A DNA stretch of 64,000 bases from a virus (IMGVR_UViG_2974656882_000001:1-64000), one strand, 5' to 3'. Shown: positions 1 to 36,228, counted from the stretch's first letter. Program-made: numbers and translations. Notes: generated from the sequence alone by a model not told the origin.

Positions 1-91
1 GTTATAATGGTTCTACCGGTTCACCGCTCTAAATTTAGCTGTTCCGTTGGACTAGAATAGCTGCTGCGCAGCCGGCGCTTCGCGCCGAAAT
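1..91. repeat. Inverted-repeat copy A. Begins with the PeSL-like element gTTATAATggttctacc, then a GC-rich hairpin (cggcgc-ttc-gcgccg). Truncated on the left by the window edge.
   Basis: Reverse complement of ~36141-36228 matches: first ~36 nt identical, a ~20-nt variable core, then ~30 nt identical. Confidence 0.8.
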
Positions 92-112
92 CTGAATATT
101 GTCGAGTATGAT

Positions 113-427
113 ATGAATATTGAAAGAGATGTAATAATCACTCCTGAAGGAGAAACATTTATTAATGTGTGGCCATTAAGTGCAATTCATTATAATGGTA
201 CTTGTAATGCTGAACTATCCGCTGAATTTATTCATAAAGCATTGAAATTTAAAGATGGTGAAGATATAATTTCATTTATAAATGATTTTGTTACTAATGG
301 ATTGAATAGTATTATTGGCTTGCCAAATACTCCTTCAACTATATATGATATTATGAATATTTTTGAAATGGCTTCTCGTGAGTGTGAAGCTAGATTTCCT
401 GAATTTAGACTGGTGTTAAATAAATGA
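113..427 (+). CDS. hypothetical protein (104 aa)
   Basis: ORF directly downstream of repeat A; stop overlaps next start (ATGA). Confidence 0.4.
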   Translation: MNIERDVIITPEGETFINVWPLSAIHYNGTCNAELSAEFIHKALKFKDGEDIISFINDFVTNGLNSIIGLPNTPSTIYDIMNIFEMASRECEARFPEFRLVLNK

Positions 428-741
428 GAGTATATAAATCCATTGAAGAGTTTGATGAAATTCAAGGTTGTCAAACAACATTATTTACTATAGGCGAAAT
501 TGATGAAAAGTTCCACCTTTCATGGATGCCTAATGTCCTTGAAGCCATCACATTGCCTCGCTATTCAGGATATTTTAATACATTTGACATGTGTCGTAAA
601 AATGCAGAAACCGTGCTCAATGCACGCTGCTCCAGCCAATCAGATATTAATACAGTCATACAGTTAATGAATGAATCTGTTCGCAAAGAATTGGAAATAA
701 ATCGTTTATTATTTCAATGTTTTAGGGAGATAGGCCTATGA
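424..741 (+). CDS. hypothetical protein (105 aa)
   Basis: ATGA-coupled ORF chain. Confidence 0.4.
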   Translation: MRVYKSIEEFDEIQGCQTTLFTIGEIDEKFHLSWMPNVLEAITLPRYSGYFNTFDMCRKNAETVLNARCSSQSDINTVIQLMNESVRKELEINRLLFQCFREIGL

Positions 742-935
742 ATATTTTTAATCAAATTCGTATTGCTAATGAGAATGCAGAAAATTTTTCTGAAGCTGCT
801 GCATTATGGTATCGGGTTGTTGTAGGTGTAGGTATATGCATTCCATTGTTGTTTATTGTTGGGTTCATTACCGGTGCATTGATGTTCAAGAATCCTCTAG
901 CTGCGGGTTCTGAGCTTGTCAACGCAATGTTCTAA
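738..935 (+). CDS. small hydrophobic protein (65 aa)
   Basis: ATGA-coupled; predicted TM segment (VVGVGICIPLLFIVGFITGALMF). Confidence 0.35.
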   Translation: MNIFNQIRIANENAENFSEAAALWYRVVVGVGICIPLLFIVGFITGALMFKNPLAAGSELVNAMF

Positions 936-977
936 TTAGTGTTACAACTTAGTTACCACTAAGCTTATATCAGGGAT

Positions 978-2207
978 ATGATAAAATGCTATCATATCCC
1001 ATTTGAGTCAATAAACCCTATCTTTGGAGATTATATGAATCTTGATTTTAGTCGAGACTTCACCGAAAGTGAAATTGAATATCTCAAATCTCTTTCACAA
1101 GAAGAACTCAATGCACTTGAAACACAATGTGAAAATTACATCACTTTATGTGATACAAATCAAATTAACCGAAAACTATTAATTAATAGCTTATATGGTG
1201 CACTCGGTAACATCTATTTTAGATTTTACGATCTTAGAAATGCTGAAGCTATTACAATCTTTGGGCAAATGGTTCTTCAATGGACTGAACGAAAGATTAA
1301 TGCATACTTAAACGAACTATGTGGAACTACAGATCATCCATATGTAATTTATGGTGACACAGATTCTCTTTACATTGAATTGAGTCCATTAATCGAAAAA
1401 GTTGGCATCGATAAATTCTCATCGACTGAAAAGCTTGTTGACTTTTTAGATGCAGTAGCTTCGAAGAAAATCGAACCAGTTATTAACAATGGGTTTAAAG
1501 AGATGTGTGAATATCTCAACAACTATGAACAATTGATGTTTATGGATCGTGAAGCTATTGCATGCCCACCACTTGGTTCTAATGGCATCGGCGGATTCTG
1601 GCGTGCCAAGAAACGATATGCACTTAATGTCTATGACATGGAAGGTACACGTTTCAAAGAGCCATACTTAAAAATTATGGGCATGGAAACTCAACAATCA
1701 TCAACGCCTAAAGCGGTCAAAGATGCATTGTTAGAAAGTATTCGTATTATGCTCCAAGAAGGTGAAAAACCATTGCAAGAGTATTTCAAGAAATTTGAAA
1801 ACGAATTCAGAAATCTTGATTATAAAGTAATTGCTGGCGTTCGTTCTGCAAATAACATTGCAAAATATGATGTGAATGGATTCCCGGGTCTTAAATGTCC
1901 AAGTCATGTTCGTGGTGTTCTTACATACCGACGTGCAATTAAGAAATACGATAACTTGCCAGATATCTCAGAAGGCGAAAAGGTAATGATCTTGCCTCTT
2001 AAACCAGGAAATCCATTTGGTGACAAGTGTATTGCATGGCCATCAGGTAATGAATTGCCAAAAGAAATTCGTGCAGATGTTCTGAAGCATATGGATGTCA
2101 TGGATTTATTTGGCAAAACATACAAAAAACCTCTTGAAGGTATGTGTGAATCTGCAGGTATGCAAGCTGAAAAACGTTCGTCATTGATGGATATGTTTGA
2201 TTTTTAA
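978..2207 (+). CDS. 43: DNA polymerase, C-terminal segment only (gp43B-like: family B motif B KxxxNSxYG and motif C YGDTDS, thumb)
   Basis: LINSLYGALGNIYFRFYDLRNAEAITIFGQ and YVIYGDTDSLYIEL align with T4 gp43 residues ~550-630. The ORF corresponds to T4 gp43 from ~residue 490, so the gene is split and the N-terminal half lies outside the window. Confidence 0.9.
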   Translation: MIKCYHIPFESINPIFGDYMNLDFSRDFTESEIEYLKSLSQEELNALETQCENYITLCDTNQINRKLLINSLYGALGNIYFRFYDLRNAEAITIFGQMVLQWTERKINAYLNELCGTTDHPYVIYGDTDSLYIELSPLIEKVGIDKFSSTEKLVDFLDAVASKKIEPVINNGFKEMCEYLNNYEQLMFMDREAIACPPLGSNGIGGFWRAKKRYALNVYDMEGTRFKEPYLKIMGMETQQSSTPKAVKDALLESIRIMLQEGEKPLQEYFKKFENEFRNLDYKVIAGVRSANNIAKYDVNGFPGLKCPSHVRGVLTYRRAIKKYDNLPDISEGEKVMILPLKPGNPFGDKCIAWPSGNELPKEIRADVLKHMDVMDLFGKTYKKPLEGMCESAGMQAEKRSSLMDMFDF

Positions 2208-2214
2208 TTATTAC

Positions 2215-2226
2215 GGCCTTCGGGCC
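2215..2226 (+). promoter_or_regulatory. UUCG-tetraloop RNA hairpin (ggcc-ttcg-ggcc) directly after 43B
   Basis: perfect stem with UUCG loop, the T4-type stable RNA hairpin class. Confidence 0.6.
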
Positions 2227-2238
2227 TTGGAGTATGAT

Positions 2239-2448
2239 ATGGCTATTTTAGATTGGCTTAACCCACCTGAATCAAAGGTAGAACTTCTTCCTGGTGCACA
2301 AGAGCTATGGAAATCAATTGTTGTTGCTGGTACTTCTAATGGCAAATTGTTCGGATCTTCTCCTGAAGAAAATGCAAAATATCTTGCAAGCTTGGCAACA
2401 GAGCTGGTTAAAGAATATTCAACTATCTTTAAGGGCTCTCTACAATGA
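2239..2448 (+). CDS. hypothetical protein (69 aa; start moved to the ATG after the hairpin, SD GGAG)
   Basis: the track ORF's upstream start lies inside the hairpin; internal ATG has an RBS. Confidence 0.4.
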   Translation: MAILDWLNPPESKVELLPGAQELWKSIVVAGTSNGKLFGSSPEENAKYLASLATELVKEYSTIFKGSLQ

Positions 2449-2744
2449 ATTCACTAATGTGTAACCATGACTTTGATTTTAACTCGCAATTATTGAGTTC
2501 TCCGCCTAAGGTTCGTTGCCGAAAATGTAGAATTACAGCTACACTTGATGATGCTACTGAATATAAAGCATTCAGTACACCTATGAGCCCTATAACAGAG
2601 CTAGAAAAGAAAGAATTTTGGAAGGCATGCGCACTAGCGTATCTACCAAATAGTACGATTATCAGCGGCCAAACCGGTATTACATCATCTGTTTCAGCAA
2701 TTGCAGATAATATGGTCGAACATTTTGTAAAACGTTTCGGATAA
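2445..2744 (+). CDS. hypothetical Cys-rich protein (99 aa)
   Basis: ATGA overlap; CxxH...CxxC pattern. Confidence 0.4.
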   Translation: MNSLMCNHDFDFNSQLLSSPPKVRCRKCRITATLDDATEYKAFSTPMSPITELEKKEFWKACALAYLPNSTIISGQTGITSSVSAIADNMVEHFVKRFG

Positions 2745-2747
2745 TTA

Positions 2748-2788
2748 CCACAAAAGGCTAAAGTTTTATTTTACTTTAGCCTTTTGTG
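2748..2788 (+). terminator. long perfect stem-loop (17-bp stem ccacaaaaggctaaagt / actttagccttttgtgg) fused to a downstream TATAAT: PeSL-type terminator/promoter cassette
   Basis: inverted repeat read directly; a TATAAT hexamer lies immediately 3' of the stem (~2793-2798). Confidence 0.6.
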
Positions 2789-2836
2789 GTGTTATAATAG
2801 CACTATCAAATAAATTATCCTTAATGAGGAAATCGA

Positions 2837-3145
2837 ATGAAAATTACTTATCAACCGCATGCTTTAGAAATTACTCTCATTAAAGGCGAAGAACGTGAAT
2901 CGGCTTCAGTAGCTATTCCATCATGGGCAACATGTGTAGCTGTTGATCGTAATGGTGTAATTAGTGTTTTTGATGAATATCCAAATCGTTGCAGCGAAGA
3001 CTGGGATAGCCTGCTCGGCTCAACATATGAAATTGTTGCAGAAGTCCAAGACGTTGTACGAAATTGGGAAAACACTTGTCATCCTATTGACCAATCATTT
3101 AATACTAAAACTGAATTAATTTTACTAGTGGGAGAAGAGCCATGA
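2837..3145 (+). CDS. hypothetical protein (102 aa)
   Basis: SD GAGGAAA 6 nt upstream. Confidence 0.45.
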   Translation: MKITYQPHALEITLIKGEERESASVAIPSWATCVAVDRNGVISVFDEYPNRCSEDWDSLLGSTYEIVAEVQDVVRNWENTCHPIDQSFNTKTELILLVGEEP

Positions 3146-3435
3146 GCTTACTCTTTGGAAGCGTCATAGCAATATTTTTATCTTTGTTCCCTATCGTGAT
3201 GGCTGCGTATTACAAGAGCTCTACTGCAATTATGGTAGCGGTAGTTGTCCTAAATTTATTAGGATTCTTTACAATGGGCGTTACAACTTTTATTGCATTT
3301 GTTGTTGCAGCAATCTCTATTGGCGTAATGAACACCATTAAATCTATTGCATTTGCGTTATTCTTACTTGCAGTAGTAGCAGTTGCCGGAGTTGCGGACC
3401 TTGCGCTTATTGCAAATATTGTTGGAGCAATTTAA
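3142..3435 (+). CDS. small polytopic inner-membrane protein (97 aa, ~4 TM); Imm-like by position (T4 imm lies between 43 and 42)
   Basis: hydrophobicity only; synteny argument. Confidence 0.4.
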   Translation: MSLLFGSVIAIFLSLFPIVMAAYYKSSTAIMVAVVVLNLLGFFTMGVTTFIAFVVAAISIGVMNTIKSIAFALFLLAVVAVAGVADLALIANIVGAI

Positions 3436-3788
3436 TGAAGAATTTATTTTTAATTCTAAGCATATCGTTTCTATCATCCGTTAATGCTGCAGTGCCAGGA
3501 TGTTATAAATGGGATACCAAATGTATAGAAAAAGAATATGCACGTCAACAAGCATTAGATGAAGAGATTCGTGACCATCGTCGCCTTATGCAACAACACA
3601 TCGATGTGGCTGTTGAATCTGAACGCCCTGTGATGGAACAACTACGAAACAAACCGCAAATTTCACCAGAAGTTATCGCAGTTCAGATTTGTCGCCAAAT
3701 GGCAATCGATGAGACTGTTTTCCGGTTTGGCTATCTTAATTCAAAACACTATCGTACATTATTAGATACATGCATGGGAGTCAAATAA
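3435..3788 (+). CDS. secreted/periplasmic protein with N-terminal signal peptide (117 aa)
   Basis: MKNLFLILSISFLSSVNA-AVPG signal-peptide-like N-terminus. Confidence 0.45.
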   Translation: MKNLFLILSISFLSSVNAAVPGCYKWDTKCIEKEYARQQALDEEIRDHRRLMQQHIDVAVESERPVMEQLRNKPQISPEVIAVQICRQMAIDETVFRFGYLNSKHYRTLLDTCMGVK

Positions 3789-3789
3789 A

Positions 3790-4242
3790 ATGACTGAAGC
3801 AGAAGTTTCAAAATTAAAACAGGTACATGAATTTGAAGTTAATCATTTGGCACATGCAAACATGGCTTGGCAACGTAAGTATGAAGAAGCCACCGAGCTT
3901 CCTAAATATGACATCAACAAGTTGCCTGAAGGCCGAATGCATATTGTACCTGAACGTATTGTTTGTGCTGCAAACCAGTACACAGATCACAATGGAAACA
4001 AAGTTGTAATTGCAGGTGTTCGCCATGCATGTTATGTGATGTATTCGTCATTTGTTGGACACAATAGCGGTGAAACAATTCTATATCGTGAAACAGAAGT
4101 ACAAGGCTTCTTAACAAATAAACATCGATTTGTCGATCGCCAAGAAGCTTGGAAAATTGCAGCAGAGCAACAACAAATTGTTTGTCGTGTAGGTGGTGAT
4201 ACATCTAAAGGCGGAACTCTTTATTCGGAGAACTTGTACTAA
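3790..4242 (+). CDS. hypothetical protein (150 aa)
   Basis: ORF in operon context. Confidence 0.45.
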   Translation: MTEAEVSKLKQVHEFEVNHLAHANMAWQRKYEEATELPKYDINKLPEGRMHIVPERIVCAANQYTDHNGNKVVIAGVRHACYVMYSSFVGHNSGETILYRETEVQGFLTNKHRFVDRQEAWKIAAEQQQIVCRVGGDTSKGGTLYSENLY

Positions 4243-4562
4243 TGGAAATCGATGAAGATTATATTGACGTTGATTTTATCAATGAGCAAATCAATGATAA
4301 ACATCACAAAATCCTTTCACTATGCATATCATTGAGTAAAAAGGGCATTGATGCATTCTATTCATATTCACCTCATGTAGATTGGGCTGATGTTAGAGTT
4401 TATACTAGTGGATGGACACAAGACAATGACCCTGATTTAATATTTAGCTTCTTGTGGTCTGACATCACTCGAGACGGGCCTGTAGATTCAGAAACTGTAA
4501 GCATAGTGATGTCCAAATTTGATAAATGTATTTTTGCATTAGAAGGTCTTTTAAATGATTGA
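4242..4562 (+). CDS. hypothetical protein (106 aa)
   Basis: ATGA-coupled. Confidence 0.4.
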   Translation: MEIDEDYIDVDFINEQINDKHHKILSLCISLSKKGIDAFYSYSPHVDWADVRVYTSGWTQDNDPDLIFSFLWSDITRDGPVDSETVSIVMSKFDKCIFALEGLLND

Positions 4563-4875
4563 TTTCAAAGAACTGCTGAAAAAGACACCGCGTTTCACTA
4601 ATGTTGAAGAAGTTGCACCTATTATTGAAGCAATGGAAACTCTCTTGGCACGAGATATCACGGAACGCCCAGACTCAGATTCATGGCAACGATCACATAG
4701 CGCTACTTCAATGACGGAATCAGCACTCAAGGAAATGTATGAATTCATTTCTAGAGAATATGTTGCGACGGGACGCACCCAAATGCAAGTTGGATTTGAG
4801 TCTGAACAAGAAATCGGACGTGATTGGTTCCCGGCTAAAATAACTTTTACCGTTAGCAGATCTATGCTAACCTAA
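4555..4875 (+). CDS. hypothetical protein (106 aa)
   Basis: overlapping start. Confidence 0.4.
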   Translation: MIDFKELLKKTPRFTNVEEVAPIIEAMETLLARDITERPDSDSWQRSHSATSMTESALKEMYEFISREYVATGRTQMQVGFESEQEIGRDWFPAKITFTVSRSMLT

Positions 4876-4918
4876 TAATGGTGATATAATAGGTCCATCA
4901 ACAAACAATGAGGTAATT

Positions 4919-5551
4919 ATGGATAACATCGATTTAGCATTAAAAGTAGTTGAAGATCAAAATGATGCATTAGATTATCTTCATACTGCTATCGCAGTAA
5001 ATGGCGACAAATATTCAAACATGATTGATATTCTAAAAGTAGTTGCAGCATCAAACTACCGACAACGCATCATGATTACTGGCGTAGGTAAAAATTCAAA
5101 TCTTGCAACTAAAGCGTCTGAAACATTTGCAAGCCTTGGCATCCCATCCATGTATTTGAACACATGTCATTATTCTCATGGCGATGCAGGATTTATCGGA
5201 CATGATGACGTAGTTATCCATGTTTCGCGTTCTGGTAAAACAGAAGAAATGCAATATATGGCACGTCATTTGAAGACTATTCGTCCTAATGTTCTTCAAA
5301 TCTTGTTGCACTGCAATAGCCAATTAACTGAAGAGCAAAAGGCGCCATTTGACATCGAATTTGGTATTCCAGGCATTGTCGAATGCGATGATAATCATCT
5401 TGCACCCACAACAAGTACAACAGTGCTATTGGTTTTATTAGATACTATTGGTGTAATTTTGTCTAAACATCTTAGATTCACACGTGAAAATTTTTATTCA
5501 TACCATCCAGGTGGTTCACTTGGAGCAATGCTCAAATCTGAATCAAAATAA
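4919..5551 (+). CDS. SIS-domain sugar-phosphate isomerase (KdsD/GutQ/GmhA-like; predicted arabinose-5-phosphate isomerase type)
   Basis: ITGVGKNSNLATKASETFASLGIPS ... HGDAGFIGHDDVVIHVSRSGKTEE = SIS fold signature; own promoter ...ggtgaTATAATagg upstream. Confidence 0.75.
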   Translation: MDNIDLALKVVEDQNDALDYLHTAIAVNGDKYSNMIDILKVVAASNYRQRIMITGVGKNSNLATKASETFASLGIPSMYLNTCHYSHGDAGFIGHDDVVIHVSRSGKTEEMQYMARHLKTIRPNVLQILLHCNSQLTEEQKAPFDIEFGIPGIVECDDNHLAPTTSTTVLLVLLDTIGVILSKHLRFTRENFYSYHPGGSLGAMLKSESK

Positions 5552-5591
5552 TTTACTTTACATAAGAACTATGATATAATTGTCATAGTTC
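5551..5591 (+). promoter_or_regulatory. early promoter ATTTAC-N18-TATAAT with the -10 inside a hairpin loop (gaactatga / tcatagttc): PeSL-like
   Basis: read directly; coordinates approximate. Confidence 0.55.
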
Positions 5592-5610
5592 TTTCTTAGG
5601 AATAAACAAT

Positions 5611-7284
5611 ATGAAAAAAGTCGTAATTTTAGGTGCAGGTCTTGCAACTCGCCTATATCCAATCACCCATCATATTCCTAAAGTCTTAGTGAATTATAAG
5701 CAACACACAATTTTGCATCATTTATATTCATTGTACACTAGACTTGGTGCTGAACAAATTATTGTGGCTGTTCATAGCAAGTTTGCTTCACAAGTTAAAG
5801 AATACGCAAAGTTGTTCGGACTTGACATTGTTGTCGAAACTGTCGATGAAGCATATGGTTCAGCTTATGCAATTTCTAGATTAGCAGATCATGTCAACGG
5901 TCACAACGTTGTTTTTAACTGGTGTGATGTCATCCCGGATTTTGATGCATTTCGATGGGATGCAAATGCAATCTATACCTTTGGTGATGAATGTCGATAT
6001 AGCTACAATGGCAAAACTTTGAAAGAACACATTGTTGGTACAGGTGGTAACGTTGTAGGCATATACCAATATCGTGATTTCTTTATTTCACGTATCAATG
6101 ACAAAGATGAAGCTAATGAGTTCTTCAAAGGGCGTGATTTTGTTGAATTAATTGACACGACAAATGAAGCGTTTTATCAAGATTATTTGCTTAATTTAGT
6201 TGACTTAGGGGACAAGCCTAAGCTTGAAATTGCACATCGTAATCGTGAACTTAATCGTGAATTCAACCAAGTGACTATGGCCTCAGGTGTTGTTTATAAA
6301 GCGGCAATCAATGAAAAAGGACGTCAATTGCAAAAAGAAGAACTTGCATGGTATGCAAAGGTTGATAGCCCTGCATTGCCAAAAATTCTTGATCGTCGTG
6401 AAACTGACAAAATAATGTCATTCAAAATGGAACGTATCATCGGCAAACCGATGTTTGAAGTGTATACGCCAGAATTATTGCCGAAAATTCTCGAGACTCT
6501 CAAATTTGATAAAATGCCAGAGTTTACATCTCGTGAACAGATCATCAATGATTATCAATATGAGGTCATTGACAAAGTCATGAGCCGTTGTGATGAAATT
6601 AAAGGAGTCATTAAATCATTTGGCGACATCGAATATGTCAATAATGTCAAAATCGGACGTTTAGAAACAATGTTGAAGCAAGCATTTGCACATTTAACAT
6701 ATGAAGCAAACGATAAAGATTATTATGTTATTCATGGCGACCCGAACTTCAGTAATATAATGCTTGATCAAAACGGTGATGTTCGTTTAATTGATCCACG
6801 TGGATATTTTGGCAAAACAAAAATCTATGGGCCGCGAATTTATGATGAAGCTAAAGTGCTTTATGCGCTGACGGGTTATGATAAATTTAATTCAGATCAT
6901 ATGTGGGGTGGATTAGCCATCAACGGTAATGCTGCAACGATCAATATCGAGCCATTAAGCGTAACATCTCTTCATAGTAAATATTTTAATGAATACCATC
7001 ATCTCTGGGTTGCAGTGATTTGGATTGCTCTTGCAGGATATTTCAAAAATAATCCATTGAAATCCGTTAGTGCATTCTACTACGGTATGTATTTGTTAAC
7101 GACTGCTCTTGATAAAATGGGACGTCGTTTGAAAGATGGATCAGTGGCTCATGATTCAGGATTAGTTCATGCAGTACTATCTACAAAAAATCCAGACAAA
7201 TGGCTATTAACTGATCTTGAAACAGGTGAAAAATATCGCCCTTCGAAATTTATTGGTGATATGCACTGGGAGAAAATTCAATGA
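5611..7284 (+). CDS. bifunctional sugar-1-phosphate nucleotidyltransferase (RmlA/GlmU/LicC-like N-terminus) fused to an APH/choline-kinase-like sugar kinase (C-terminus)
   Basis: N-terminus VVILGAGLATRLYPITHHIPKVLV (GxGTRL NTase motif); C-terminus HGDPNFSNIMLD...DVRLIDPRG (Brenner HxDxxxxN kinase motif plus DFG-like ID). Same architecture class as AmgK/MurU and LicA/LicC pairs. Confidence 0.75.
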   Translation: MKKVVILGAGLATRLYPITHHIPKVLVNYKQHTILHHLYSLYTRLGAEQIIVAVHSKFASQVKEYAKLFGLDIVVETVDEAYGSAYAISRLADHVNGHNVVFNWCDVIPDFDAFRWDANAIYTFGDECRYSYNGKTLKEHIVGTGGNVVGIYQYRDFFISRINDKDEANEFFKGRDFVELIDTTNEAFYQDYLLNLVDLGDKPKLEIAHRNRELNREFNQVTMASGVVYKAAINEKGRQLQKEELAWYAKVDSPALPKILDRRETDKIMSFKMERIIGKPMFEVYTPELLPKILETLKFDKMPEFTSREQIINDYQYEVIDKVMSRCDEIKGVIKSFGDIEYVNNVKIGRLETMLKQAFAHLTYEANDKDYYVIHGDPNFSNIMLDQNGDVRLIDPRGYFGKTKIYGPRIYDEAKVLYALTGYDKFNSDHMWGGLAINGNAATINIEPLSVTSLHSKYFNEYHHLWVAVIWIALAGYFKNNPLKSVSAFYYGMYLLTTALDKMGRRLKDGSVAHDSGLVHAVLSTKNPDKWLLTDLETGEKYRPSKFIGDMHWEKIQ

Positions 7285-8365: not shown

Positions 8366-8370
8366 ATGAT

Positions 8371-11027: not shown

Positions 11028-12146
11028 ATGAAAATCTTATACATTCCATGTCGATTTATTACTTTTAATGCCAACTATATTTCAGGTGGCCTTGAATCGG
11101 TCCAATTGAACTTTATCAAAACGATGAGCAAGAAGCATCAAATTGATTATATTGCATTTGGCGATGAAACATTTGGACCTTACAAAGTAAACCCAATCTC
11201 TATTGACTATCCGATTGTTGACAAATATACGGTAAAACATGGCAAAAAGATCATTGAAAAAATTGCAGAACTTGATTGCTCCCAATACGATGCTATCGTA
11301 ACTGTAGAGGCAGCAAAAGGTGTTATCAATGGTTTAATTAAACTAGGGCTTGGACCAAAGATTCGAAATTTATTGGCTACTCCACTTGACCCTACAATTC
11401 GCACACTTGTTTCTATTTGGCGCACTGCGGTATTCATTCACCAGAATGGCGGTAAAAATTTAGTTCCTACTCAAACCTTTAAAGATTTGACATCTAAAGT
11501 TTATTCAAAAATGAACAGACGTTTAGCGGTAGGTGCCATTGATTTTGATTATTGGGCTAAGAATGACATCATCTCTGATAATTTCTTTCCAGCTACGTTA
11601 ATCGAGAATCCGCCAGAAGTTTTGCCATCAAAGGGATATGTAGTACAAGCTCAACGGTATGACTTAAAATTTAGAAAGACAAATGTAGCATTAGAAGCAA
11701 TGAAACATTGTCCACATAAAATTATTGCATTCTTGCCAAGACAGTGGGCACCTCCAAAGAAATATCTTAAAGAGCCTTTTGTGCATATGGATATACCTCG
11801 TAAAGCAATCCAAGATACAATTAAAGAAGCACTAGTTCTTGTAAATACTTGTCATGATACCGGTACTATTGAACATGGCTCAATGGAAGCGATTGAAAAG
11901 GGTGTTCCAGTATTACAACTTATTCAACGAGGCTATAGTCATGCCACGTTAGAACATGATCCAACTACACAAGTTGTATGGATCGATGATGGTATGACAA
12001 CTGAGGAAATTATTGCAGCTTATTCTGATGCGTTAAATAATTTCACCGATACATTTGAACAACGAGTAAATCGTGCAAATGCATTATACGAACAATACCG
12101 CCCTGAACGTGTATTTGCACTATGGGAAAAGGCACTTCTGGAGTAA
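11028..12146 (+). CDS. GT-B fold glycosyltransferase, tandem paralog
   Basis: MKILYIPC...GGLE; TGTIEHGSMEAIEKGVPVL. Confidence 0.55.
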   Translation: MKILYIPCRFITFNANYISGGLESVQLNFIKTMSKKHQIDYIAFGDETFGPYKVNPISIDYPIVDKYTVKHGKKIIEKIAELDCSQYDAIVTVEAAKGVINGLIKLGLGPKIRNLLATPLDPTIRTLVSIWRTAVFIHQNGGKNLVPTQTFKDLTSKVYSKMNRRLAVGAIDFDYWAKNDIISDNFFPATLIENPPEVLPSKGYVVQAQRYDLKFRKTNVALEAMKHCPHKIIAFLPRQWAPPKKYLKEPFVHMDIPRKAIQDTIKEALVLVNTCHDTGTIEHGSMEAIEKGVPVLQLIQRGYSHATLEHDPTTQVVWIDDGMTTEEIIAAYSDALNNFTDTFEQRVNRANALYEQYRPERVFALWEKALLE

Positions 12147-16827: not shown

Positions 16828-17151
16828 ATGCAAAAATATATCCTTAAAAATGGCAAATACAGATTAACTACAATTAAATTTGGACGCACACTCCATGAAA
16901 AACTTTTAGACATTGAGCCAGGTAAATATCGCATTGCTATGTGTAATGTGGCTACTAATTTGGAAGTTGAACGCCAACACAATTGTATTATTTTTATTTT
17001 AGGAGAATTCAAATATTACTTTGATCTCGACGGTGAATTTTCAATGTTGCTCAAAGGCAACACTCGCCTAAATGAAAACTTTGATGAAAACAATAAGGTT
17101 GTAGAATATCTCATGGAATTTTTACAAACACCACAACTTGAACGCATTTGA
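16828..17151 (+). CDS. hypothetical protein (107 aa)
   Basis: ORF with promoter cassette upstream. Confidence 0.4.
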   Translation: MQKYILKNGKYRLTTIKFGRTLHEKLLDIEPGKYRIAMCNVATNLEVERQHNCIIFILGEFKYYFDLDGEFSMLLKGNTRLNENFDENNKVVEYLMEFLQTPQLERI

Positions 17152-29841: not shown

Positions 29842-30066
29842 ATGGATTTAGCTAATGTTATCGCAACTCGTCCTGAAGGTACTGTTGTAATCGCCGTTGT
29901 AGAATCTGAAGAAATGTATTCATACTTTGATGATGCAGGTAATATCTGGACACAAGACGATGAACAATGGGAATCTAACCATGGCTGGAGCCCTGAAGAT
30001 TCGATCGAATCACTGTCTGAAAATGATTTAGAAGTTAAAGTAATTTTTGATATTCGCGGAGAATAA
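29842..30066 (+). CDS. acidic hypothetical protein (74 aa)
   Basis: SD AAGGA. Confidence 0.4.
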   Translation: MDLANVIATRPEGTVVIAVVESEEMYSYFDDAGNIWTQDDEQWESNHGWSPEDSIESLSENDLEVKVIFDIRGE

Positions 30067-30067
30067 C

Positions 30068-30535: not shown

Positions 30536-30536
30536 T

Positions 30537-30878
30537 ATGAAGAAGAAATGTATTCTTTTAATTGATTCACTAAAAAACATACAAAACAACGTTAAAAGTG
30601 AACTTAAATTGCTCGATAGCAAAATTGCTAAAATTCATCGTACTATGTATAATGAACGTAAATGGAGAATTCGTAATAATAGACCGCTAGGTGCCAAAGA
30701 TAAAGCTCGTGAAAATGAGGTACAACAAGCTAAAGAATCGCTTGAACTTCTAGCAAGTACATTTAGACACCATATAAGAAGTTACGGTGATGCTATTTGT
30801 CGAATTCGTGAAGTTAAACGAGGTAACTCAAAGAAAAATGTTGATGACATTATCTTAAATCTGTTTACTTCGTTATAA
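30537..30878 (+). CDS. basic coiled-coil protein (113 aa)
   Basis: ATG right after upstream stop. Confidence 0.4.
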   Translation: MKKKCILLIDSLKNIQNNVKSELKLLDSKIAKIHRTMYNERKWRIRNNRPLGAKDKARENEVQQAKESLELLASTFRHHIRSYGDAICRIREVKRGNSKKNVDDIILNLFTSL

Positions 30879-30925
30879 AAGTATGGTATAATGGTCTTAT
30901 CAAATCTAATAATTGATTTGAAATT
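30864..30925 (+). promoter_or_regulatory. early promoter GTTTAC-N17-TATAAT (30864-30892) plus conserved structured leader atcaaatc-taataatt-gatttgaa (7-bp stem) just upstream of the SD
   Basis: same cassette, nearly identical, at ~31321-31380, ~32570-32628 and ~27334-27384. Confidence 0.65.
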
Positions 30926-30941
30926 AAATGAGTAAATTACT

Positions 30942-31286
30942 ATGAACATCTTAGATTTAATCGAATTCTTTCCTAAAGCTTCAACTATCCATACAGCATT
31001 TTGCAATGAGTTTGATATTGCTCCTCATGCTTTAGAAACTTTTAGCACTTACTATATTGAAAGCTTATCATTTAAAGATGGCTGCCCGATAATTCGTGCA
31101 TATACGATTTATTCTACCTGGTGCAATAGTGAAATGCGCACAGTTTATCATATCTTTGGATGGACGGTTTCGAAAAATCGTATAGAAATTGACGATGAGC
31201 CTTTAAATGCAAATCGTTTTACAGGATTTGACTTTGCTCTTTCATATTTGATGAATCGAGTTCAAGTTTCAGAATTAAAAAATTAA
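30942..31286 (+). CDS. hypothetical acidic protein (114 aa), member of a tandem paralog set
   Basis: shares ...I(E/T)IDDEP(L/F)... C-terminal block with 31381-31734. Confidence 0.45.
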   Translation: MNILDLIEFFPKASTIHTAFCNEFDIAPHALETFSTYYIESLSFKDGCPIIRAYTIYSTWCNSEMRTVYHIFGWTVSKNRIEIDDEPLNANRFTGFDFALSYLMNRVQVSELKN

Positions 31287-31296
31287 AATAAATTGC

Positions 31297-31327
31297 ACAA
31301 AAGGAGTATACATCATACTCCTTTTGT
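31297..31327 (+). terminator. hairpin acaaaaggagtat-acatc-atactccttttgt fused to GGTATAAT promoter
   Basis: read directly. Confidence 0.65.
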
Positions 31328-31380
31328 GGTATAATGGTCTTATCAAATCTAATAATTGATTTGAAATTGAGGAAATTATT

Positions 31381-31734
31381 ATGCTAAACATCCAATTACC
31401 TTCAGTTGAACAAATCGTAGATCAATTTCACATCGATTTCAATATCACCGATGGCAACTTCAATTACAAATCATCCTTTGTAACATCTGCAACTCCTAAC
31501 CGATTAACTGCTAATGGCTTTAATGATGGCTGGGAATTACGTATGCTAACTGTTTATTCAGTTTTTGATGCGGATATTGATGCAATTCAATATGTAATTT
31601 GGGGCTCTTCTGTTGACACAAGTACAATGGATATTACAATTGATGATGAACCATTTTTCGATCAATCATTCGATTCATTAGAGCAAGCATTACGTGCATT
31701 AAATTATGAAGTAAATGCATATAAAATTCACTAA
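31381..31734 (+). CDS. hypothetical acidic protein (117 aa), paralog
   Basis: MDITIDDEPFFDQSF versus RIEIDDEPLNANRF. Confidence 0.45.
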   Translation: MLNIQLPSVEQIVDQFHIDFNITDGNFNYKSSFVTSATPNRLTANGFNDGWELRMLTVYSVFDADIDAIQYVIWGSSVDTSTMDITIDDEPFFDQSFDSLEQALRALNYEVNAYKIH

Positions 31735-31802
31735 TTAGTTTACATGATAGAGCTGTTATGATATAATAGTTCTATCAAATCAATCACAATGAGTAAATTG
31801 TT

Positions 31803-32126
31803 ATGAACATCATATTTCCTTCACATATCGCAGTAGAAAACGCAATTGGCGCAGAGTTTTACGTAATTAGCTGCCCTAAGCTAAATCGTTTGTATTACAA
31901 AGGTGCCTTTGTTAATTCTGATTCAAATTGGGAAGTCCAAGGTTTCGCCTTATACAATTACTACGATGAAGACCTAGGTGAAACAATCTATATGTGCGTA
32001 GAATTCTCTTATGACACCGAAAATGAAGTTTTTGAATTTAAAGAATTCATTGAGCCAGGTGGTCATGATGATATTGATGAAGCCGAAGAATATTTACAAT
32101 CACTATATAATGTGAAATTAGTGTAA
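31803..32126 (+). CDS. hypothetical acidic protein (107 aa)
   Basis: own PeSL promoter and leader. Confidence 0.45.
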   Translation: MNIIFPSHIAVENAIGAEFYVISCPKLNRLYYKGAFVNSDSNWEVQGFALYNYYDEDLGETIYMCVEFSYDTENEVFEFKEFIEPGGHDDIDEAEEYLQSLYNVKLV

Positions 32127-32200
32127 AAGGCAATTTACATTGCGATAAGACTATGGTATAATAGTCTTATCAAATCAAACAACACATTGAGTAAATTAAT

Positions 32201-32536
32201 ATGCGTTCATTAAACAATTTCAAAAACACTGTTCCAAATTTTGTTAAGAATCACCTTGGCGCCATTGAATTGGTTCAAATTATGGAATTTCCGGACCATT
32301 TCCTTATTATGACGTTTGACGCTTTAGAAGAAGAGTACACTGTAACTTCAGTAAACAAACGTGAAAATGATGACCAATATGAATCTGAATTGTTCAATGG
32401 GTATTCTGAAAAAATAACTCTTGGCGAATACGAAGAAGAAGTCGAAGATGAAACGATTGATCTTGAAGTTATTACATCGTTTGAAGATTATGCAATATAT
32501 CGTTTTGCATTAGAACTCGGTATCGAAGGAATTTAA
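32201..32536 (+). CDS. hypothetical acidic protein (111 aa)
   Basis: own PeSL promoter and leader. Confidence 0.45.
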   Translation: MRSLNNFKNTVPNFVKNHLGAIELVQIMEFPDHFLIMTFDALEEEYTVTSVNKRENDDQYESELFNGYSEKITLGEYEEEVEDETIDLEVITSFEDYAIYRFALELGIEGI

Positions 32537-32628
32537 TTAAACTAATAAACTGTTTACATCTTGATAGGACTATAGTATAATAGTTCTATCAAATCTAATA
32601 ACAGATTTGAAATTTGAGGAAATTAAAA

Positions 32629-32835
32629 ATGAAAGCATCAATTACTAAAATCCCTGAAGGCACTACTGTTGTTTCACAACTTAACGGCGAATTTTACTTC
32701 TATAAACCTATTGAAGGTGAAATCGTTACACCTGAAGGACATCAAGCACCATGTTCAATGGTATGGTGCACTGATGAAAATGGAGGATGCTGGGAATACT
32801 CTTACCTTGACATTTCAAAAATCGAAATAAAATAA
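32629..32835 (+). CDS. hypothetical protein (68 aa)
   Basis: SD GAGGAAA. Confidence 0.35.
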   Translation: MKASITKIPEGTTVVSQLNGEFYFYKPIEGEIVTPEGHQAPCSMVWCTDENGGCWEYSYLDISKIEIK

Positions 32836-32836
32836 A

Positions 32837-32861
32837 ACAAAGGAGCTTTAAGCTCCTTTTG
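32837..32861 (+). terminator. terminator hairpin caaaggagcttt-aagctcctttt
   Basis: followed by a second AT-rich hairpin and GTGGTATAAT. Confidence 0.65.
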
Positions 32862-32951
32862 TGGCAAAAATAAAAAGAAAATTATTTACTTCTGCTTTTT
32901 ATTGTGGTATAATAGTTCTATCAACACGTTAAACTAATTGAGTAAAACATT

Positions 32952-33425
32952 ATGAATATTTTTCATTTTGACACAAATCCAGCTAAATCTGCACAATATC
33001 ATTGTGACAAACATGTTGTTAAAATGTGTGTCGAATATTGTCAAATTCTTTCTACTGTTTCTCGTTTAAACGGCTGTGATCAGGAAATTCTTTATAAAGC
33101 AACTCATAAAAATCACCCATGTGTTGTATGGACTATGCAATCTCGCCAAAACTACGAGTTCCTCCTTGATCTAGTTATCGAGTTATTTGGTGAATATACA
33201 TACCGCTATGGCAAAGTTCATGCTAGTTCACGAGTTATCCCTGCATTAATTGACAATATTTCAAAAATTCCATTAGGTGCAAATAAACTTACACCATTCG
33301 TCGCAGTAATGCCAGGTCGTATTCTTCATACTAATGTAATTAACGAGTACCGATCACTTTATAAAAATGAAAAAGCACACATGGCAAAATGGACCGGTCG
33401 TGGTATTCCATTCTTTATGAAATAA
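32952..33425 (+). CDS. hypothetical protein (157 aa)
   Basis: conserved leader ttgagtaaaacattATG. Confidence 0.45.
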   Translation: MNIFHFDTNPAKSAQYHCDKHVVKMCVEYCQILSTVSRLNGCDQEILYKATHKNHPCVVWTMQSRQNYEFLLDLVIELFGEYTYRYGKVHASSRVIPALIDNISKIPLGANKLTPFVAVMPGRILHTNVINEYRSLYKNEKAHMAKWTGRGIPFFMK

Positions 33426-33491
33426 AAACTATTTACATAGGTGCCATTATGTAGTATAATGGCACTAACAGAAATTAATGAGTAAAATATC

Positions 33492-33821
33492 ATGCCATTA
33501 CCAAATTTTATAGCACTTCGTAAATTCCTTGGTACTAATTATGATGAGCTGCACGCAACTCTCCTTGTAAAAGGCTTCATCAGAGACATTGATCAATCAT
33601 CAGGTGTTCTAGATCAAATTCTATTTAGAGGTAAATTTACTTGTTCTGAGGTGTTATCTTCACATAGGTTTCCGGTAAAAGTCCAATATCTTGCAATTGC
33701 TGCAGCTGTTGAAGAAATGGAAGCCAAAGGCATACAGTTACCAAAACATGGCATTGCATCTAAATGTACTACATGTTCAAAATGTAAATCCGAACGTGCT
33801 CTATTGGAGACGTATCAATGA
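33492..33821 (+). CDS. hypothetical Cys-containing protein (109 aa)
   Basis: C-terminal CTTCSKCKSE. Confidence 0.45.
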   Translation: MPLPNFIALRKFLGTNYDELHATLLVKGFIRDIDQSSGVLDQILFRGKFTCSEVLSSHRFPVKVQYLAIAAAVEEMEAKGIQLPKHGIASKCTTCSKCKSERALLETYQ

Positions 33822-34105
33822 AAGTTTATTTAGTCGTCGCACGCATTGATGATTATTATACAAGCATAACGCCAATGGGCATCCATAACACATATGATGA
33901 AGCTTTAGATAGTGCATATAACGCATTCAAAAATGTTCAATTTGCCGAAAACAATCGATATACAGGTTGGATTTTTGATTCTAATTTGATTTCAAAGGAC
34001 CAACAGCCTAAAGTAGTTCAATTACACGGCAAAAGGCATAATCAATGCGCATCGTATGAAGTTGACATTGCAATTATCGAATATGAATTAGGAGAAGCTC
34101 AATGA
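33818..34105 (+). CDS. hypothetical protein (95 aa)
   Basis: ATGA-coupled. Confidence 0.4.
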   Translation: MKVYLVVARIDDYYTSITPMGIHNTYDEALDSAYNAFKNVQFAENNRYTGWIFDSNLISKDQQPKVVQLHGKRHNQCASYEVDIAIIEYELGEAQ

Positions 34106-34308
34106 AATGGCACCCTTCGATTCCTCACACAATACGATGCGCATTTTTAGCAGCTATAGTTGCATTACTTTTGACGGCGATAATTGTGGTGCCACTGAAA
34201 GTTGTGGTACCACTCTTGCCTGAATCAGTACCCTTATCATTGTATTCGATAATTGTAGTGGTTGTATTGGCTTGTTTACTTTGTATTGACGAAAACTCGG
34301 AGTTATAA
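34102..34308 (+). CDS. small membrane protein (68 aa, 2 TM)
   Basis: ATGA-coupled; hydrophobic. Confidence 0.35.
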   Translation: MKWHPSIPHTIRCAFLAAIVALLLTAIIVVPLKVVVPLLPESVPLSLYSIIVVVVLACLLCIDENSEL

Positions 34309-34502
34309 TGTTTGTACTTACTCACAATGGCATTCAATATCAATACCATACACATGTTAGGCTTATTGCAAAATTAGGTGGTCTTAAAGCAATTGAAGCC
34401 AAATTACAGACACCTCTTATGTGTGGTGAACAGTATTATCTTAAGCATATTGTGTATATTGCTAATCAATTTAAGGATAAACTAAATGCAAACTTTAGCT
34501 GA
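34308..34502 (+). CDS. hypothetical protein (64 aa)
   Basis: overlapping chain. Confidence 0.3.
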   Translation: MFVLTHNGIQYQYHTHVRLIAKLGGLKAIEAKLQTPLMCGEQYYLKHIVYIANQFKDKLNANFS

Positions 34503-34929
34503 AATTAAGCAAGAGCTTGAACAAGAAAAGGCTGAACAATTTGGCAATCTTGAACAACGTGCAATTGAAAGCGATCCTCTCTGGCTTCTAGATGAAAATG
34601 GGGAGCCTATTCCAGAACGTGTAGAATCTACAGCTAAAATGATAATTCGAAGACAGATATGCCAAGTTTTGCGTAAACAAAAAAGTACAGCTGAAGAGCT
34701 CAAGTTTTATCGTGAATTCTTTAAGCAAACGATTTACGGTGTACCTGTTGAATTGCCTATCAACAATCAGTATTTGATTAATTTACAAAAATCTGATGCT
34801 TTGCGAATCTTGCTTAAAGAAGGATTTGTTAAAATGAAACGTAGACGCGGACGAACTATTTCACGAAGTCGTTTCAATTTTGGTTGGAAGCCTTGCGGTA
34901 CATATCAAACATACTTAGTCATCAGGTAA
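34486..34929 (+). CDS. hypothetical basic protein (147 aa)
   Basis: overlapping chain. Confidence 0.4.
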   Translation: MQTLAEIKQELEQEKAEQFGNLEQRAIESDPLWLLDENGEPIPERVESTAKMIIRRQICQVLRKQKSTAEELKFYREFFKQTIYGVPVELPINNQYLINLQKSDALRILLKEGFVKMKRRRGRTISRSRFNFGWKPCGTYQTYLVIR

Positions 34930-34935
34930 ACCAAA

Positions 34936-35154
34936 ATGAAAGCATTTAAACCTGAACGAATTATACTTGCAACCATTGCAGCGTTAATTTCATTATTTGG
35001 AGCATTTGGTGTTTTATCAATTGCTCATAAAATTTACACCACATTAGGCGCTCAATTTCCTGCAGATACTGCATTTGCAATTTACTGCATAAGCGCCTTT
35101 GTACTTAGTTGGATTGTTACACGTATTTTTGAAGATTATAAAGGTGATGATTGA
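34936..35154 (+). CDS. small membrane protein (72 aa, 2 TM)
   Basis: hydrophobic. Confidence 0.4.
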   Translation: MKAFKPERIILATIAALISLFGAFGVLSIAHKIYTTLGAQFPADTAFAIYCISAFVLSWIVTRIFEDYKGDD

Positions 35155-35251
35155 CATGCGTTTTTAAAGCTTTTTTTAATTTTATTTATATTCTTTGATG
35201 TAAAGCACAGATTAGTAATTGATCTATTAATAAATATTTACGGAGACGATT

Positions 35252-35443
35252 ATGTCACTAACATTAACTCAAGAGCAAGTAGATTTCTTAGCAATTAGTA
35301 TTGGAAATGCAAGAAGTTTGATGGATGCAGTACATGCGTATGACTCAGAAGAGTACCATGCACTAGGTGTTGCAAACAATATTCTTGATGGCTTTTCAGT
35401 TCAAGAGGCTAAAGAAGTCTATAAGGAACAATACAATGACTAA
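35252..35443 (+). CDS. hypothetical protein (63 aa)
   Basis: SD GGAGA. Confidence 0.35.
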   Translation: MSLTLTQEQVDFLAISIGNARSLMDAVHAYDSEEYHALGVANNILDGFSVQEAKEVYKEQYND

Positions 35444-35621
35444 ACAAAAAGGTGAAGTTACCGATAACTTCAAGAAAAATCCTAAAGCAACATTAAGTTT
35501 TGCTGCGATTGCTTTAGCAGGCGTAGCTGCAGTAGTTGGCGTTTTGACTGGATCCGTTGAACCAGAACAAGCGATGACATTAGTAACTAAATTACTTAAT
35601 GCGTTGATGCTAGGTGTTTAA
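35436..35621 (+). CDS. small membrane protein (61 aa)
   Basis: SD AAGGAA before the internal ATG. Confidence 0.3.
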   Translation: MTKQKGEVTDNFKKNPKATLSFAAIALAGVAAVVGVLTGSVEPEQAMTLVTKLLNALMLGV

Positions 35622-35640
35622 CACATAACCCGAGGTAATC

Positions 35641-36084
35641 ATGATTAAACAATATGTAAATTACGATTTGCTTGATGCTTTTGAGCATAATGACTTTGAT
35701 GCAATAGTACATGGCTGCAACTGTTTTCATACGATGGGTGCAGGTATTGCTGGTGCTATTGCAAAAAGATTTCCTGTAGCTGTTGAAGCAGACAAGAAAA
35801 CTGAGTATGGCGATTGGAGCAAGCTCGGCGATGTGAGCATCGCCACAACTGTTAATGGTGACATCATTAATGCATATACTCAATATCGTCCTGGTAAATG
35901 CCCAACACATCAGCTATATGAAAATATACGTGCAGCATTCACGTTAATTAATAGCAAATATGCTGGCAAATCTTTAGGAATTCCTAAAATCGGAGCAGGT
36001 ATTGCAGGTGGAAATTGGCAAGAAATTGCTGAGATCATCAATGACGTGACGCCAGATGTCAAAATTTATGTATTATACATATAA
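35641..36084 (+). CDS. macro-domain protein (ADP-ribose binding / hydrolase fold), 147 aa
   Basis: AIVHGCNCFHTMGAGIAGAI and IGAGIAGG are the two glycine-rich macro-domain motifs (compare IVNAAN...GGGVxxAI and GxGxxG). Confidence 0.7.
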   Translation: MIKQYVNYDLLDAFEHNDFDAIVHGCNCFHTMGAGIAGAIAKRFPVAVEADKKTEYGDWSKLGDVSIATTVNGDIINAYTQYRPGKCPTHQLYENIRAAFTLINSKYAGKSLGIPKIGAGIAGGNWQEIAEIINDVTPDVKIYVLYI

Positions 36085-36086
36085 CA

Positions 36087-36114
36087 AAAGGAGCCAAATG
36101 GCTCCTTTATTTTT
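36087..36114 (+). terminator. rho-independent terminator aaaggagcc-aaat-ggctccttta-ttttt (bidirectional-capable)
   Basis: near-identical terminators at 42541-42566 and 55817-55844. Confidence 0.8.
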
Positions 36115-36140
36115 CTCTCAAGATACATCAAACAAATCTA

Positions 36141-36228
36141 ATTTCGGCGCGAAGCGCCGGCTGCGCAGCTATACTTCTCCGACCAAATAGATAAATTTAG
36201 AGCGGTGAACCGGTAGAACCATTATAAC
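36141..36228. repeat. Inverted-repeat copy B (reverse complement of window positions 1-91)
   Basis: On the - strand it reads gTTATAATggttctaccggttcaccgctctaaattt...tagctgcgcagccggcgcttcgcgccgaaat; the central ~20 nt diverged and there is a 3-nt indel relative to copy A. Confidence 0.8.

Follow-up and report, generated by a model that had tools for sequence, protein, structure and literature searches.

The locus analyzed here raises the question of why a T4-like phage carries an inverted repeat with arms some 36 kb apart, one at the start and the other at about 36.2 kb of a 64,000-nucleotide (nt) stretch of DNA (hereafter, the window). The window corresponds to bases 1–64000 of Acinetobacter phage AbTZA1 (MK278860; first 3 kb 100% identical), a T4-like phage whose circular record of 168,223 bp is assigned to Straboviridae, Twarogvirinae, Hadassahvirus. 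An original prediction had treated the two arms (designated here copies A and B) as a pair bracketing most of the early region. A repeat search and the reading of both strands confirmed that the inverted repeat exists, but A and B are two of five dispersed copies and their bracketing of the early region is incidental. All five are composite non-coding modules, each consisting of a terminator hairpin with a MotA-like box, an extended −10 element, an untranslated transcribed segment and an easily melted AT-rich block. We propose, with somewhat less than even confidence, that the modules could be transcription-primed (R-loop type) replication origins of the kind represented by oriF and oriG of phage T4. 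A literature search returned no description of the module family, of its link to the inversion in phage DLP2 described below or of its T4 paralogs.

Five dispersed copies of one module

The complete AbTZA1 genome was assembled from the window and three further stretches and then compared by BLAST. Within the window, the repeat search recovered two pairs of arms, 1–64/36165–36228 (64 nt, 88% complementary) and 63–91/36141–36169 (29 nt, 100% complementary). Their layout is one of 37 identical nt (GTTATAATGGTTCTACCGGTTCACCGCTCTAAATTTA), a diverged core of about 25 nt and another 29 identical nt with a GC hairpin (CGGCGC-TTC-GCGCCG) at positions 73–87 in copy A and 36159–36145 on the minus strand in copy B. 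Copy A had been suspected to be longer than the window reveals. Indeed, when the end of the record is joined to its start, the homology runs 19 nt further upstream of base 1, across the record junction. In full, the repeat is about 110 nt long with 86% identity (genome 168205–168223 plus 1–91 versus 36247–36141).

The core sequence GGTTCACCGC occurs exactly five times in the AbTZA1 genome, once per module. The −10 elements are at 3 (copy A, plus strand), 36226 (copy B, minus strand), 65907 (copy D, plus strand), 97820 (copy C, plus strand) and 136099 (copy E, minus strand), the last three outside the window. All five copies have TGTTATAATGGTTCTAC(C)GGTTCACCGCTCTAAATTTATCTATTTGGTCGGAGAAG in common. 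The core of copy A deviates from that of B, C, D and E, which share TCTATTTGGTCGGAGAAG. The full GCTGCGCAGCC plus CGGCGC-TTC-GCGCCG block is confined to A and B, and it was for this reason that they caught the eye first. Copy D retains part of this 3′ block and copy E a remnant of it, and copies C and E have another continuation in common.

In most copies, a TAAAGCA-N(4–6)-TGCTTTA inverted repeat with a T-rich run after it precedes the −10. The repeat is of the terminator-hairpin type, and its descending (3′) arm doubles as the MotA-like box. The −10 itself is a perfect extended element (TGT-TATAAT). The −10, the MotA-like box before copy B and the bidirectional terminator of the original prediction are all present, and the box precedes copy A as well. 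TGCTTTA boxes are found in copies A, B and C of AbTZA1 and in four of the five copies of the Lazarusvirus fHyAci03; the box of copy E is degenerate (TGCTATC) and copy D has a −35-like TTTACA instead. The distance from box to −10 is 14 bp in every copy, compared with 11–13 bp in the other TGCTTnA promoters of these genomes. The promoter is followed in all copies by a conserved, untranslated transcribed segment of about 50 nt.

Beyond this segment lies DNA predicted to melt easily. Nearest-neighbor duplex stability, which is a computational proxy for unwinding only, places a 30-bp window of extreme instability (98th–100th genome percentile) between +58 and +136 in all five AbTZA1 and all five fHyAci03 modules; the five AbTZA1 modules alone fall in the 99th–100th percentile. 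The same level of instability is reached at only 17.5% of 57 other promoter-like sites and at 20% of random positions.

In copy A, the extended −10 (TGT-TATAAT) occupies positions 1–8 of the plus strand, with TATAAT at 3–8 and the TG spanning the junction (genome 168223/window 1). The upstream terminator hairpin and TGCTTTA box are at about genome 168176–168209, outside the window at the end of the circular record, and the TGCTTTA stands 14 nt before TATAAT, as in copy B. A conserved discriminator and initial transcribed block, GGTTCTACCGGTTCACCGCTCTAAATTTA (9–37, plus strand; predicted start near base 15), recurs unchanged in copy B and almost unchanged in C, D and E. It is followed on the same strand by the variable core GCTGTTCCGTTGGACTAGAATA (38–59), the odd one out among the five copies, and by the 'long form' 3′ block confined to A and B (60–91), which comprises a GCTGCTGCGCAGC palindrome, the GC hairpin (CGGCGC at 73–78, TTC, GCGCCG at 82–87) and AAAT. 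The AT-rich, low-stability block of copy A (92–136, plus strand) overlaps the start of an open reading frame (ORF) at 113–427; within it, instability peaks in a 30-bp window from about 107, which ranks in the 99th genome percentile.

All elements of copy B are on the minus strand. The MotA-like box TGCTTTA (36241–36247) stands 14 nt upstream of the extended −10 (TGT-TATAAT, 36221–36229; TATAAT at 36226–36221). The untranslated transcribed module (36141–36220) has a predicted start near 36214 and no ORF. It consists of the conserved block (36220–36192), the core (36191–36171), a AGCTGCGCAG motif (36170–36161) and the GC hairpin CGGCGC-TTC-GCGCCG, with arms at 36159–36154 and 36150–36145. The AT-rich spacer that follows (36109–36140) contains a conserved TTTGATGTATCT box, a TGATGTATCTGATA-type motif common across genera. 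Next is a bidirectional intrinsic terminator, AAAGGAGCC-AAAT-GGCTCCTTT (36087–36108, both strands), which would stop the copy B RNA at about 130 nt and which also ends the plus-strand tk.4 transcription unit. The transcript of each copy had also been suggested to end in the GC hairpin. However, no U-run follows the hairpin, so it is not a terminator, and only A and B carry it.

We also noted a mini-ORF of two to three codons (ATG ATA TAG, ATG ATT TAG, ATG ATA TGA and similar) in the AT-rich block of nine of 10 copies (for example, window 104–115 and 36112–36126), which recalls the bar minigenes of lambda. Bar-like minigenes (ATG-NNN-stop) in the AT-rich box were judged a side effect of the overlapping TAGATGTAT/TGATGTATCTGATA motif and may be incidental.

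Conserved sites and concerted evolution

The element is present in 52 phage records, 13 of them close relatives of AbTZA1 and 39 Lazarusvirus-like, at about five places in each. In the Lazarusviruses fHyAci03 and Kimel, the five sites and the orientations of the five copies are those of AbTZA1. Phage Acj9 also carries diverged copies at the B and D sites, the former antisense, and tandem pairs of them at the E site (antisense) and at the C site. These form two sequence subtypes, and within the genome each is the same from site to site. A search of the split gene 43 region of Acj9 and of all of 1–86.5 kb turned up no copy at site A. Comparison of the genomes thus shows sites and orientations fixed across at least three genera. 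Further Acinetobacter phage contigs carry recognizable relatives after gene 25.

Conservation of the module exceeds that of its surroundings. For example, the module of phage PhT2 is 99% identical, compared with 89% for the surrounding 3 kb. Furthermore, the copies are homogenized within genomes: CTCTAAATTTA is present in all five AbTZA1 copies and CTCTAATTATA in all five fHyAci03 copies. These diagnostic bases show that the copies are kept alike within each genome, as expected from concerted evolution. The stem of the GC hairpin is also retained between genera while its loop varies (TTC versus TGT).

A host-derived or wider mobile element was considered and rejected. Scans for the exact core covered IMG/VR, metagenomes and 185,579 bacterial genomes, and true matches to the 16-mer core in IMG/VR were found only in Kimel. 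The 49 metagenome and 35 bacterial-genome matches had no flanking module, and none was in Acinetobacter; these matches are due to chance and the element is not host-derived.

Module sites and T4 paralogs

Neighboring genes were named after the better-annotated relative fHyAci03. Copy C lies directly downstream of gene 25, a site that matches exactly the T4 oriF [ori(uvsY)] annotation in the gene 25/uvsY gap. Copy D occupies the gap between gene 34 and rnh and is directed away from gene 34. T4 oriG has the same direction but is about 2 kb inside gene 34. Copy B is between a tk.4-like macro-domain gene (35641–36084) and srd (36456–37424), and copy E between genes 2 and 3; each faces against both of its neighbors. 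Copy A, inserted in the DNA polymerase gene 43, has no T4 counterpart.

Copies B and E contain no ORF and reach hairpin terminators after about 125–135 nt, whereas ORFs follow directly downstream of copies A and C. Coding potential in copy B is limited to ORFs of 21–44 amino acids, which either begin within the promoter or belong to the opposite strand. A second, separate rnh promoter of the MotA type (TGCTTCA, 12 nt, TACAAT) follows module D at AbTZA1 65994–66025, indicating that module D is not needed for rnh expression; in Acj9, module D is followed by a second −10 (TGTTATAAT) only. Together, the ORF-less, antisense and terminator-ended copies B and E and the separate rnh promoter after D argue that the modules are not kept for gene expression.

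We also identified relatives of the modules in T4 itself. The promoter of T4 oriF (PuvsY) and its first 20 or so transcribed nt (from the −10 onward, TATAATGAATCTAAGTCC-ATCCA) have two close antisense paralogs in the T4 genome (NC_000866). One has its −10 at 11,885 (plus strand) in the srd–modA gap, upstream of srd, and matches copy B; the other has its −10 at 75,988 (plus strand) in the gene 3/gene 2 gap and matches copy E. Both are unannotated MotA-box promoter units with the site and orientation of modules B and E, and neither appears among the 58 T4 middle promoters that have been identified (PMC2988021 Table 1). The gene 3/2 spacer is 96–100% conserved across 504 Tequatrovirus records, with at most a ribosome-binding-site annotation in those inspected. 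The match to the B and E sites makes the arrangement older than the split of the T4 and Acinetobacter-phage subfamilies. Furthermore, the paralogy of the oriF promoter with units at sites B and E means that the family includes the site of an experimentally proven origin.

Inversion of the A-to-B segment in DLP2

The original prediction had also proposed that the pair could mediate recombinational inversion, and the A-to-B segment is indeed inverted in the Lazarusvirus DLP2. A 1.6-kb region around copy B was compared among the 52 module-bearing records (assembled genomes), and 49 were collinear across copy B. Collinearity broke exactly at the module in DLP2 and in KARL-1. KARL-1 was not counted as a second inversion, as its genes are in the normal order and the break reflects only where its record was cut, at copy B. 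In DLP2, the ORFs of the gene 43 insert and the genes from 43B through the macro gene are all on the opposite strand, and the inverted block (31 kb) is bounded by module copies at 17,056 and 48,037. Each DLP2 copy has its own upstream flank and core and the downstream flank of the other copy, which places the crossover within a shared block of about 38 nt (GCTGCTGCGCAGCCGGCGCTGTGCGCCGAAATTAGATG) that holds the GC hairpin. As read from the assembled genome, this exchange of flanks shows that recombination between A and B inverted the 31-kb segment.

The DLP2 inversion has been published without a link to repeats (PMC10051250). The phage was sequenced with 2 × 150 Illumina reads and assembled with SPAdes, and no check by polymerase chain reaction or long reads is mentioned (PMC10051250). 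The diagnostic core bases are only about 38 nt from the diagnostic flanks and single reads would span both, so that we judge mis-assembly unlikely. Natural isolates thus lend support to recombinational inversion, and an unexplained 31-kb rearrangement in a therapeutic-candidate Acinetobacter phage gains a mechanistic account. The original prediction had allowed that the repeat might be an ordinary, dispersed promoter/terminator cassette without inversion polymorphism. The copies are dispersed, but they are not an ordinary cassette and inversion polymorphism exists between isolates.

We also observed that the AbTZA1 record starts inside module A and that the KARL-1 record both starts and ends inside module B. 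Assemblies of these phages thus seem to break at the repeat, and other records could hide orientation errors or real isomers. Caution is warranted with assemblies of these phages, in which the module tends to be a point of breakage or inversion.

A possible family of transcription-primed origins

Only two T4 origins, oriF and oriG, are understood mechanistically; each requires as a minimum a promoter and a downstream unwinding element, and the origin transcript forms an R-loop that primes leading-strand synthesis (PMC3016281). The architecture of the modules, a promoter followed by an unstable block, fits this minimal origin (PMC3016281) and is one of several observations that point to an origin function. 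Copy C stands at the T4 oriF site and copy D is oriented as oriG, and the oriF promoter has paralogs at the B and E sites. There are five copies only, at the same five sites and in the same orientations in fHyAci03 and Kimel. The module is also better conserved than its flanks and, as argued above, not retained for the expression of genes. A MotA-box promoter would depend on middle-mode transcription factors, and the window encodes both, motA at 53613–54230 (plus strand; PF09158, E = 5.6e-12) and asiA at 54242–54517 (plus strand; PF09010, E = 8.8e-19); their presence is a further point in favor.

The distribution of the copies around the genome points the same way. The modules are evenly spaced, with gaps of 36.2, 29.7, 31.9, 38.3 and 32.1 kb in AbTZA1 (P of about 2e-4 under both a uniform null and a null of five among 62 promoter-like sites); the corresponding P in fHyAci03 is 1.6e-5 (uniform null). 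Furthermore, C, D and E lie no more than 2 kb from three local minima of cumulative GC skew, which are points of transcription divergence, whereas A and B do not.

In the mechanism that we envision, RNA polymerase would start at the module promoter and its short untranslated transcript would stay hybridized in or beside the easily unwound block. The hybrid could then be processed to a 3′-OH that primes leading-strand synthesis, with the displaced strand permitting helicase-primase loading. Five evenly spaced origins would share out the early replication of the 168-kb genome. The homogenization of the copies and an occasional inversion of the A/B type could be by-products of very active T4-like recombination at the modules.

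Several observations weigh against this interpretation. T4 origins are reported to share no sequence motif and R-loop formation at oriF to require no specific sequence (PMC3016281), and the T4 model therefore leaves the conserved 50-nt segment unexplained. The T4 paralogs also fail to coincide with mapped origins: oriA (16.8 kb) is 4.9 kb from the counterpart of B and oriE (79.4 kb) is 3.4 kb from the counterpart of E, each paralog being opposite to the annotated primer direction. The spacing statistic was computed after the pattern had been seen, and the second genus provides no independent evidence of even spacing because the sites are syntenic. In Acj9, the lack of a clear site-A copy leaves a gap of 69 kb. 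Within the module, the first 50 transcribed nt, at about 44% G+C, are not AT-rich, and in A and B a strong GC hairpin sits between the promoter and the AT-rich block. Lastly, a MotA-dependent middle-mode promoter has a MotA box, (a/t)(a/t)(a/t)TGCTTtA, located 12 ± 1 bp upstream of a sigma70 −10. The box on which the predicted middle-mode promoter was based is present, but its spacing of 14 nt lies outside the 12 ± 1 of T4 and leaves that mode uncertain. The extended −10 could work without MotA.

A broader hypothesis is possible but doubtful. T4-like phages may carry an ancient family of transcription-primed origins, uniform within each genome, of which the T4 set would be oriF plus two unrecognized antisense units and the full AbTZA1 set the five modules. 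If so, the T4 units at 11,885 and 75,988 could be where initiation truly occurs for oriA and oriE, both of which are mapped only loosely. The transcribed sequence, variable between genera and uniform within each genome, would in that case act as a specificity element, either in forming R-loops or for a factor that recognizes origins. Such a family would be at odds with the prevailing view that no motif is common to T4 origins. What determines the formation of R-loops at oriF and oriG, and whether other origins use R-loops, are questions left open in a review of T4 replication (PMC3016281). A repeated module at fixed sites that include the oriF position, together with its T4 paralogs, makes them directly testable.

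Alternative functions of the modules

The modules could instead be non-coding regulatory transcription units whose conserved segment acts as RNA or through transcription itself, a reading that we consider the main rival, though rather unlikely. Copies A, C and D could provide their mRNAs with a protective or regulatory 5′ leader, as the ORFs directly after A and C would allow. Copies B and E could produce stand-alone RNAs of about 125–135 nt with a possible role in trans, or they could insulate neighboring units by convergent transcription. In agreement with this, B and E are ORF-less promoter-to-terminator units with position and orientation kept from Acj9 to T4. A non-coding RNA of about 130 nt from copy B is plausible because the copy has no ORF and points against its flanking genes. 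The hairpin stem retained despite a changed loop is also what an RNA element would predict. Furthermore, in most variants a C-rich arm precedes a G-rich arm complementary to it (CCGCUC/GGUCGG, CCACC/GGUGG, CCCUCCC/GGCGGGG), as judged by eye and without statistical support.

Structure predictions did not support a functional RNA, however. RNAalifold found no consensus pairs across 11 diverse copies, and single sequences folded no better than shuffled ones (z of −0.2 to −1.9). Searches of the modules for tRNA and transfer-messenger RNA found none, and Rfam returned nothing at gathering thresholds and only chance-level matches to the terminator at E ≤ 10. A conserved RNA structure, including a put-like antiterminator, was rejected on the lack of consensus pairs and on the loss in fHyAci03 of the hairpin predicted in AbTZA1. 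Also rejected was a trans-acting antisense RNA with phage targets, as no complementary stretch of at least 11 nt occurs in the phage genome outside the modules. A regulatory RNA would, in addition, leave unexplained the even spacing, the low-stability block and the coincidence of site C with T4 oriF.

Less likely still are ordinary cassettes of the PeSL/PmSL kind, in which a stem-loop lies immediately upstream of an early or Mot-box promoter (PMC4122927). In such a scenario, gene conversion would keep the promoter-terminator cassettes alike, recombination would be their main consequence and the transcribed segment would be functionless. The upstream half of the module (stem-loop, Mot box and −10) matches the PmSL description (PMC4122927), and the window is rich in PeSL-like early promoters (families D1–D4). 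Moreover, the diagnostic bases common to all five copies of each genome are a signature of gene conversion, and the DLP2 inversion arose by A-B recombination. However, PeSLs are numerous, occur in hyperplastic regions and run straight into the Shine-Dalgarno sequence and ATG of a gene (PMC4122927). The modules number only five, three of them (C, D and E) beside the core late genes 25, 34 and 2/3, and all place a conserved untranslated sequence (50–90 nt or, in another estimate, 50–130 nt) after the promoter. Two orphan copies (B and E) face the wrong way and have no downstream gene. From T4 to the Acinetobacter phages, sites and orientations are unchanged, and conservation of the module exceeds that of the genes on either side. 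A cassette reading explains neither the orphans nor the fixed sites and spacing.

A programmed switch that flips the 31–36-kb block of replication genes, with A and B as its recombination sites, would account for the opposite orientation of one natural isolate (DLP2), with breakpoints inside the repeats, and for the hairpin or palindrome in the crossover block, but is very improbable given the collinearity of 49 of the 52 records across copy B (with KARL-1 also in normal order), the lack of an evident invertase (though no search aimed at invertases was made), a crossover in about 38 nt of homology as general recombination predicts, three additional copies that cannot belong to such a switch and a symmetrical outcome in gene content and module arrangement with no obvious change in expression. 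Transcription-primed origins are our preferred, if tentative, interpretation of the modules.

Genes and repeats surrounding the modules

Copy A lies within an insertion that splits the DNA polymerase gene 43 into 43A (165973–167481) and 43B (about window 978–2207). The insert comprises module A and three small ORFs (113–427, 424–741 and 738–935), none of which matched a Pfam family, and some related records annotate the two halves of the gene as a 'join'. In DLP2, a distance of 30 kb and a change of strand separate the halves. This arrangement argues for synthesis as two distinct polypeptides and implies that the halves of the split polymerase work at this distance. A group I intron or spliced polymerase gene was rejected, as the window has no intron match and DLP2 separates the halves.

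Just upstream of srd, a 32-amino-acid hydrophobic ORF (MIYVLFVILVLFIILAYRF...; window 36361–36459, plus strand) follows an early-type promoter at about 36302–36354 and may encode an unannotated small membrane protein. Between 2764 and 53606, the window contains at least 11 PeSL-like early promoter cassettes (GTTTAC...TATAATGGTTCTATCAAATC; families D1–D4), concentrated at 27–33 kb and often with an inverted repeat around the −10. Two pairs of direct repeats (9844–9935/11025–11116 and 10270–10417/11448–11595), with 71–72% identity and 1.18 kb apart, appear to indicate tandem paralogous genes. Outside the window, AbTZA1 92059–93765 is annotated as 'Lead, cadmium, zinc and mercury transporting ATPase' at the position of the baseplate hub/tail-length gene 29. 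This label is almost certainly a mis-annotation.

Comparison with known systems

Segments inverted via inverted repeats include the G segment of phage Mu and the C segment of P1 (Gin/Cin), and herpesvirus genomes isomerize in a similar manner by homologous recombination. As in these systems, the repeat-flanked DNA occurs in both orientations among isolates and the breakpoints are inside the repeats. Unlike Mu and P1, no site-specific recombinase turned up (no aimed search for invertases was made) and the crossover is in plain homology. The segment is also 31–36 kb long, contains essential replication genes and is inverted in one of about 50 sequenced relatives.

Like PeSL and PmSL cassettes (Arbiol 2010; Comeau 2014), the modules are repeated within the genome and serve as substrates of homologous recombination that rearranges it. 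They differ from PeSLs in their five copies, long conserved untranslated segment, sites fixed across genera, antisense orphans and even spacing.

The ColE1 RNA II primer is named as a transcript-primed origin in the T4 review (PMC3016281). In the mechanism proposed here, the modules would resemble it in that a promoter-proximal untranslated transcript primes synthesis via a persistent RNA-DNA hybrid. Folding of the transcript through its C-rich and G-rich arms could also compete with hybrid formation. However, the modules have no similarity to RNA II in sequence or structure, are multi-copy and have no identified antisense regulator of the RNA I type.

The modules also resemble the T4 origins. 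As in oriF and oriG, a MotA-type box and −10 are followed within about 100 bp by an easily unwound block, and some of the transcripts are untranslated or antisense. In T4, oriE, oriF and oriG, but not oriA and oriC, are close to points at which the transcription strand and nucleotide skew switch (PMC3016281), a split that resembles that of C, D and E versus A and B in AbTZA1. In contrast to oriF and oriG, the box-to-(−10) distance is 14 nt and a GC hairpin precedes the AT-rich block in A and B; copy D is in the rnh/34 gap rather than inside gene 34. The modules also differ from T4 origins in the transcribed sequence of about 50 nt common to all copies. The module is best filed as having the architecture of a T4-type origin or PmSL-type cassette, to which are added a shared transcribed element, a fixed copy number and even spacing.

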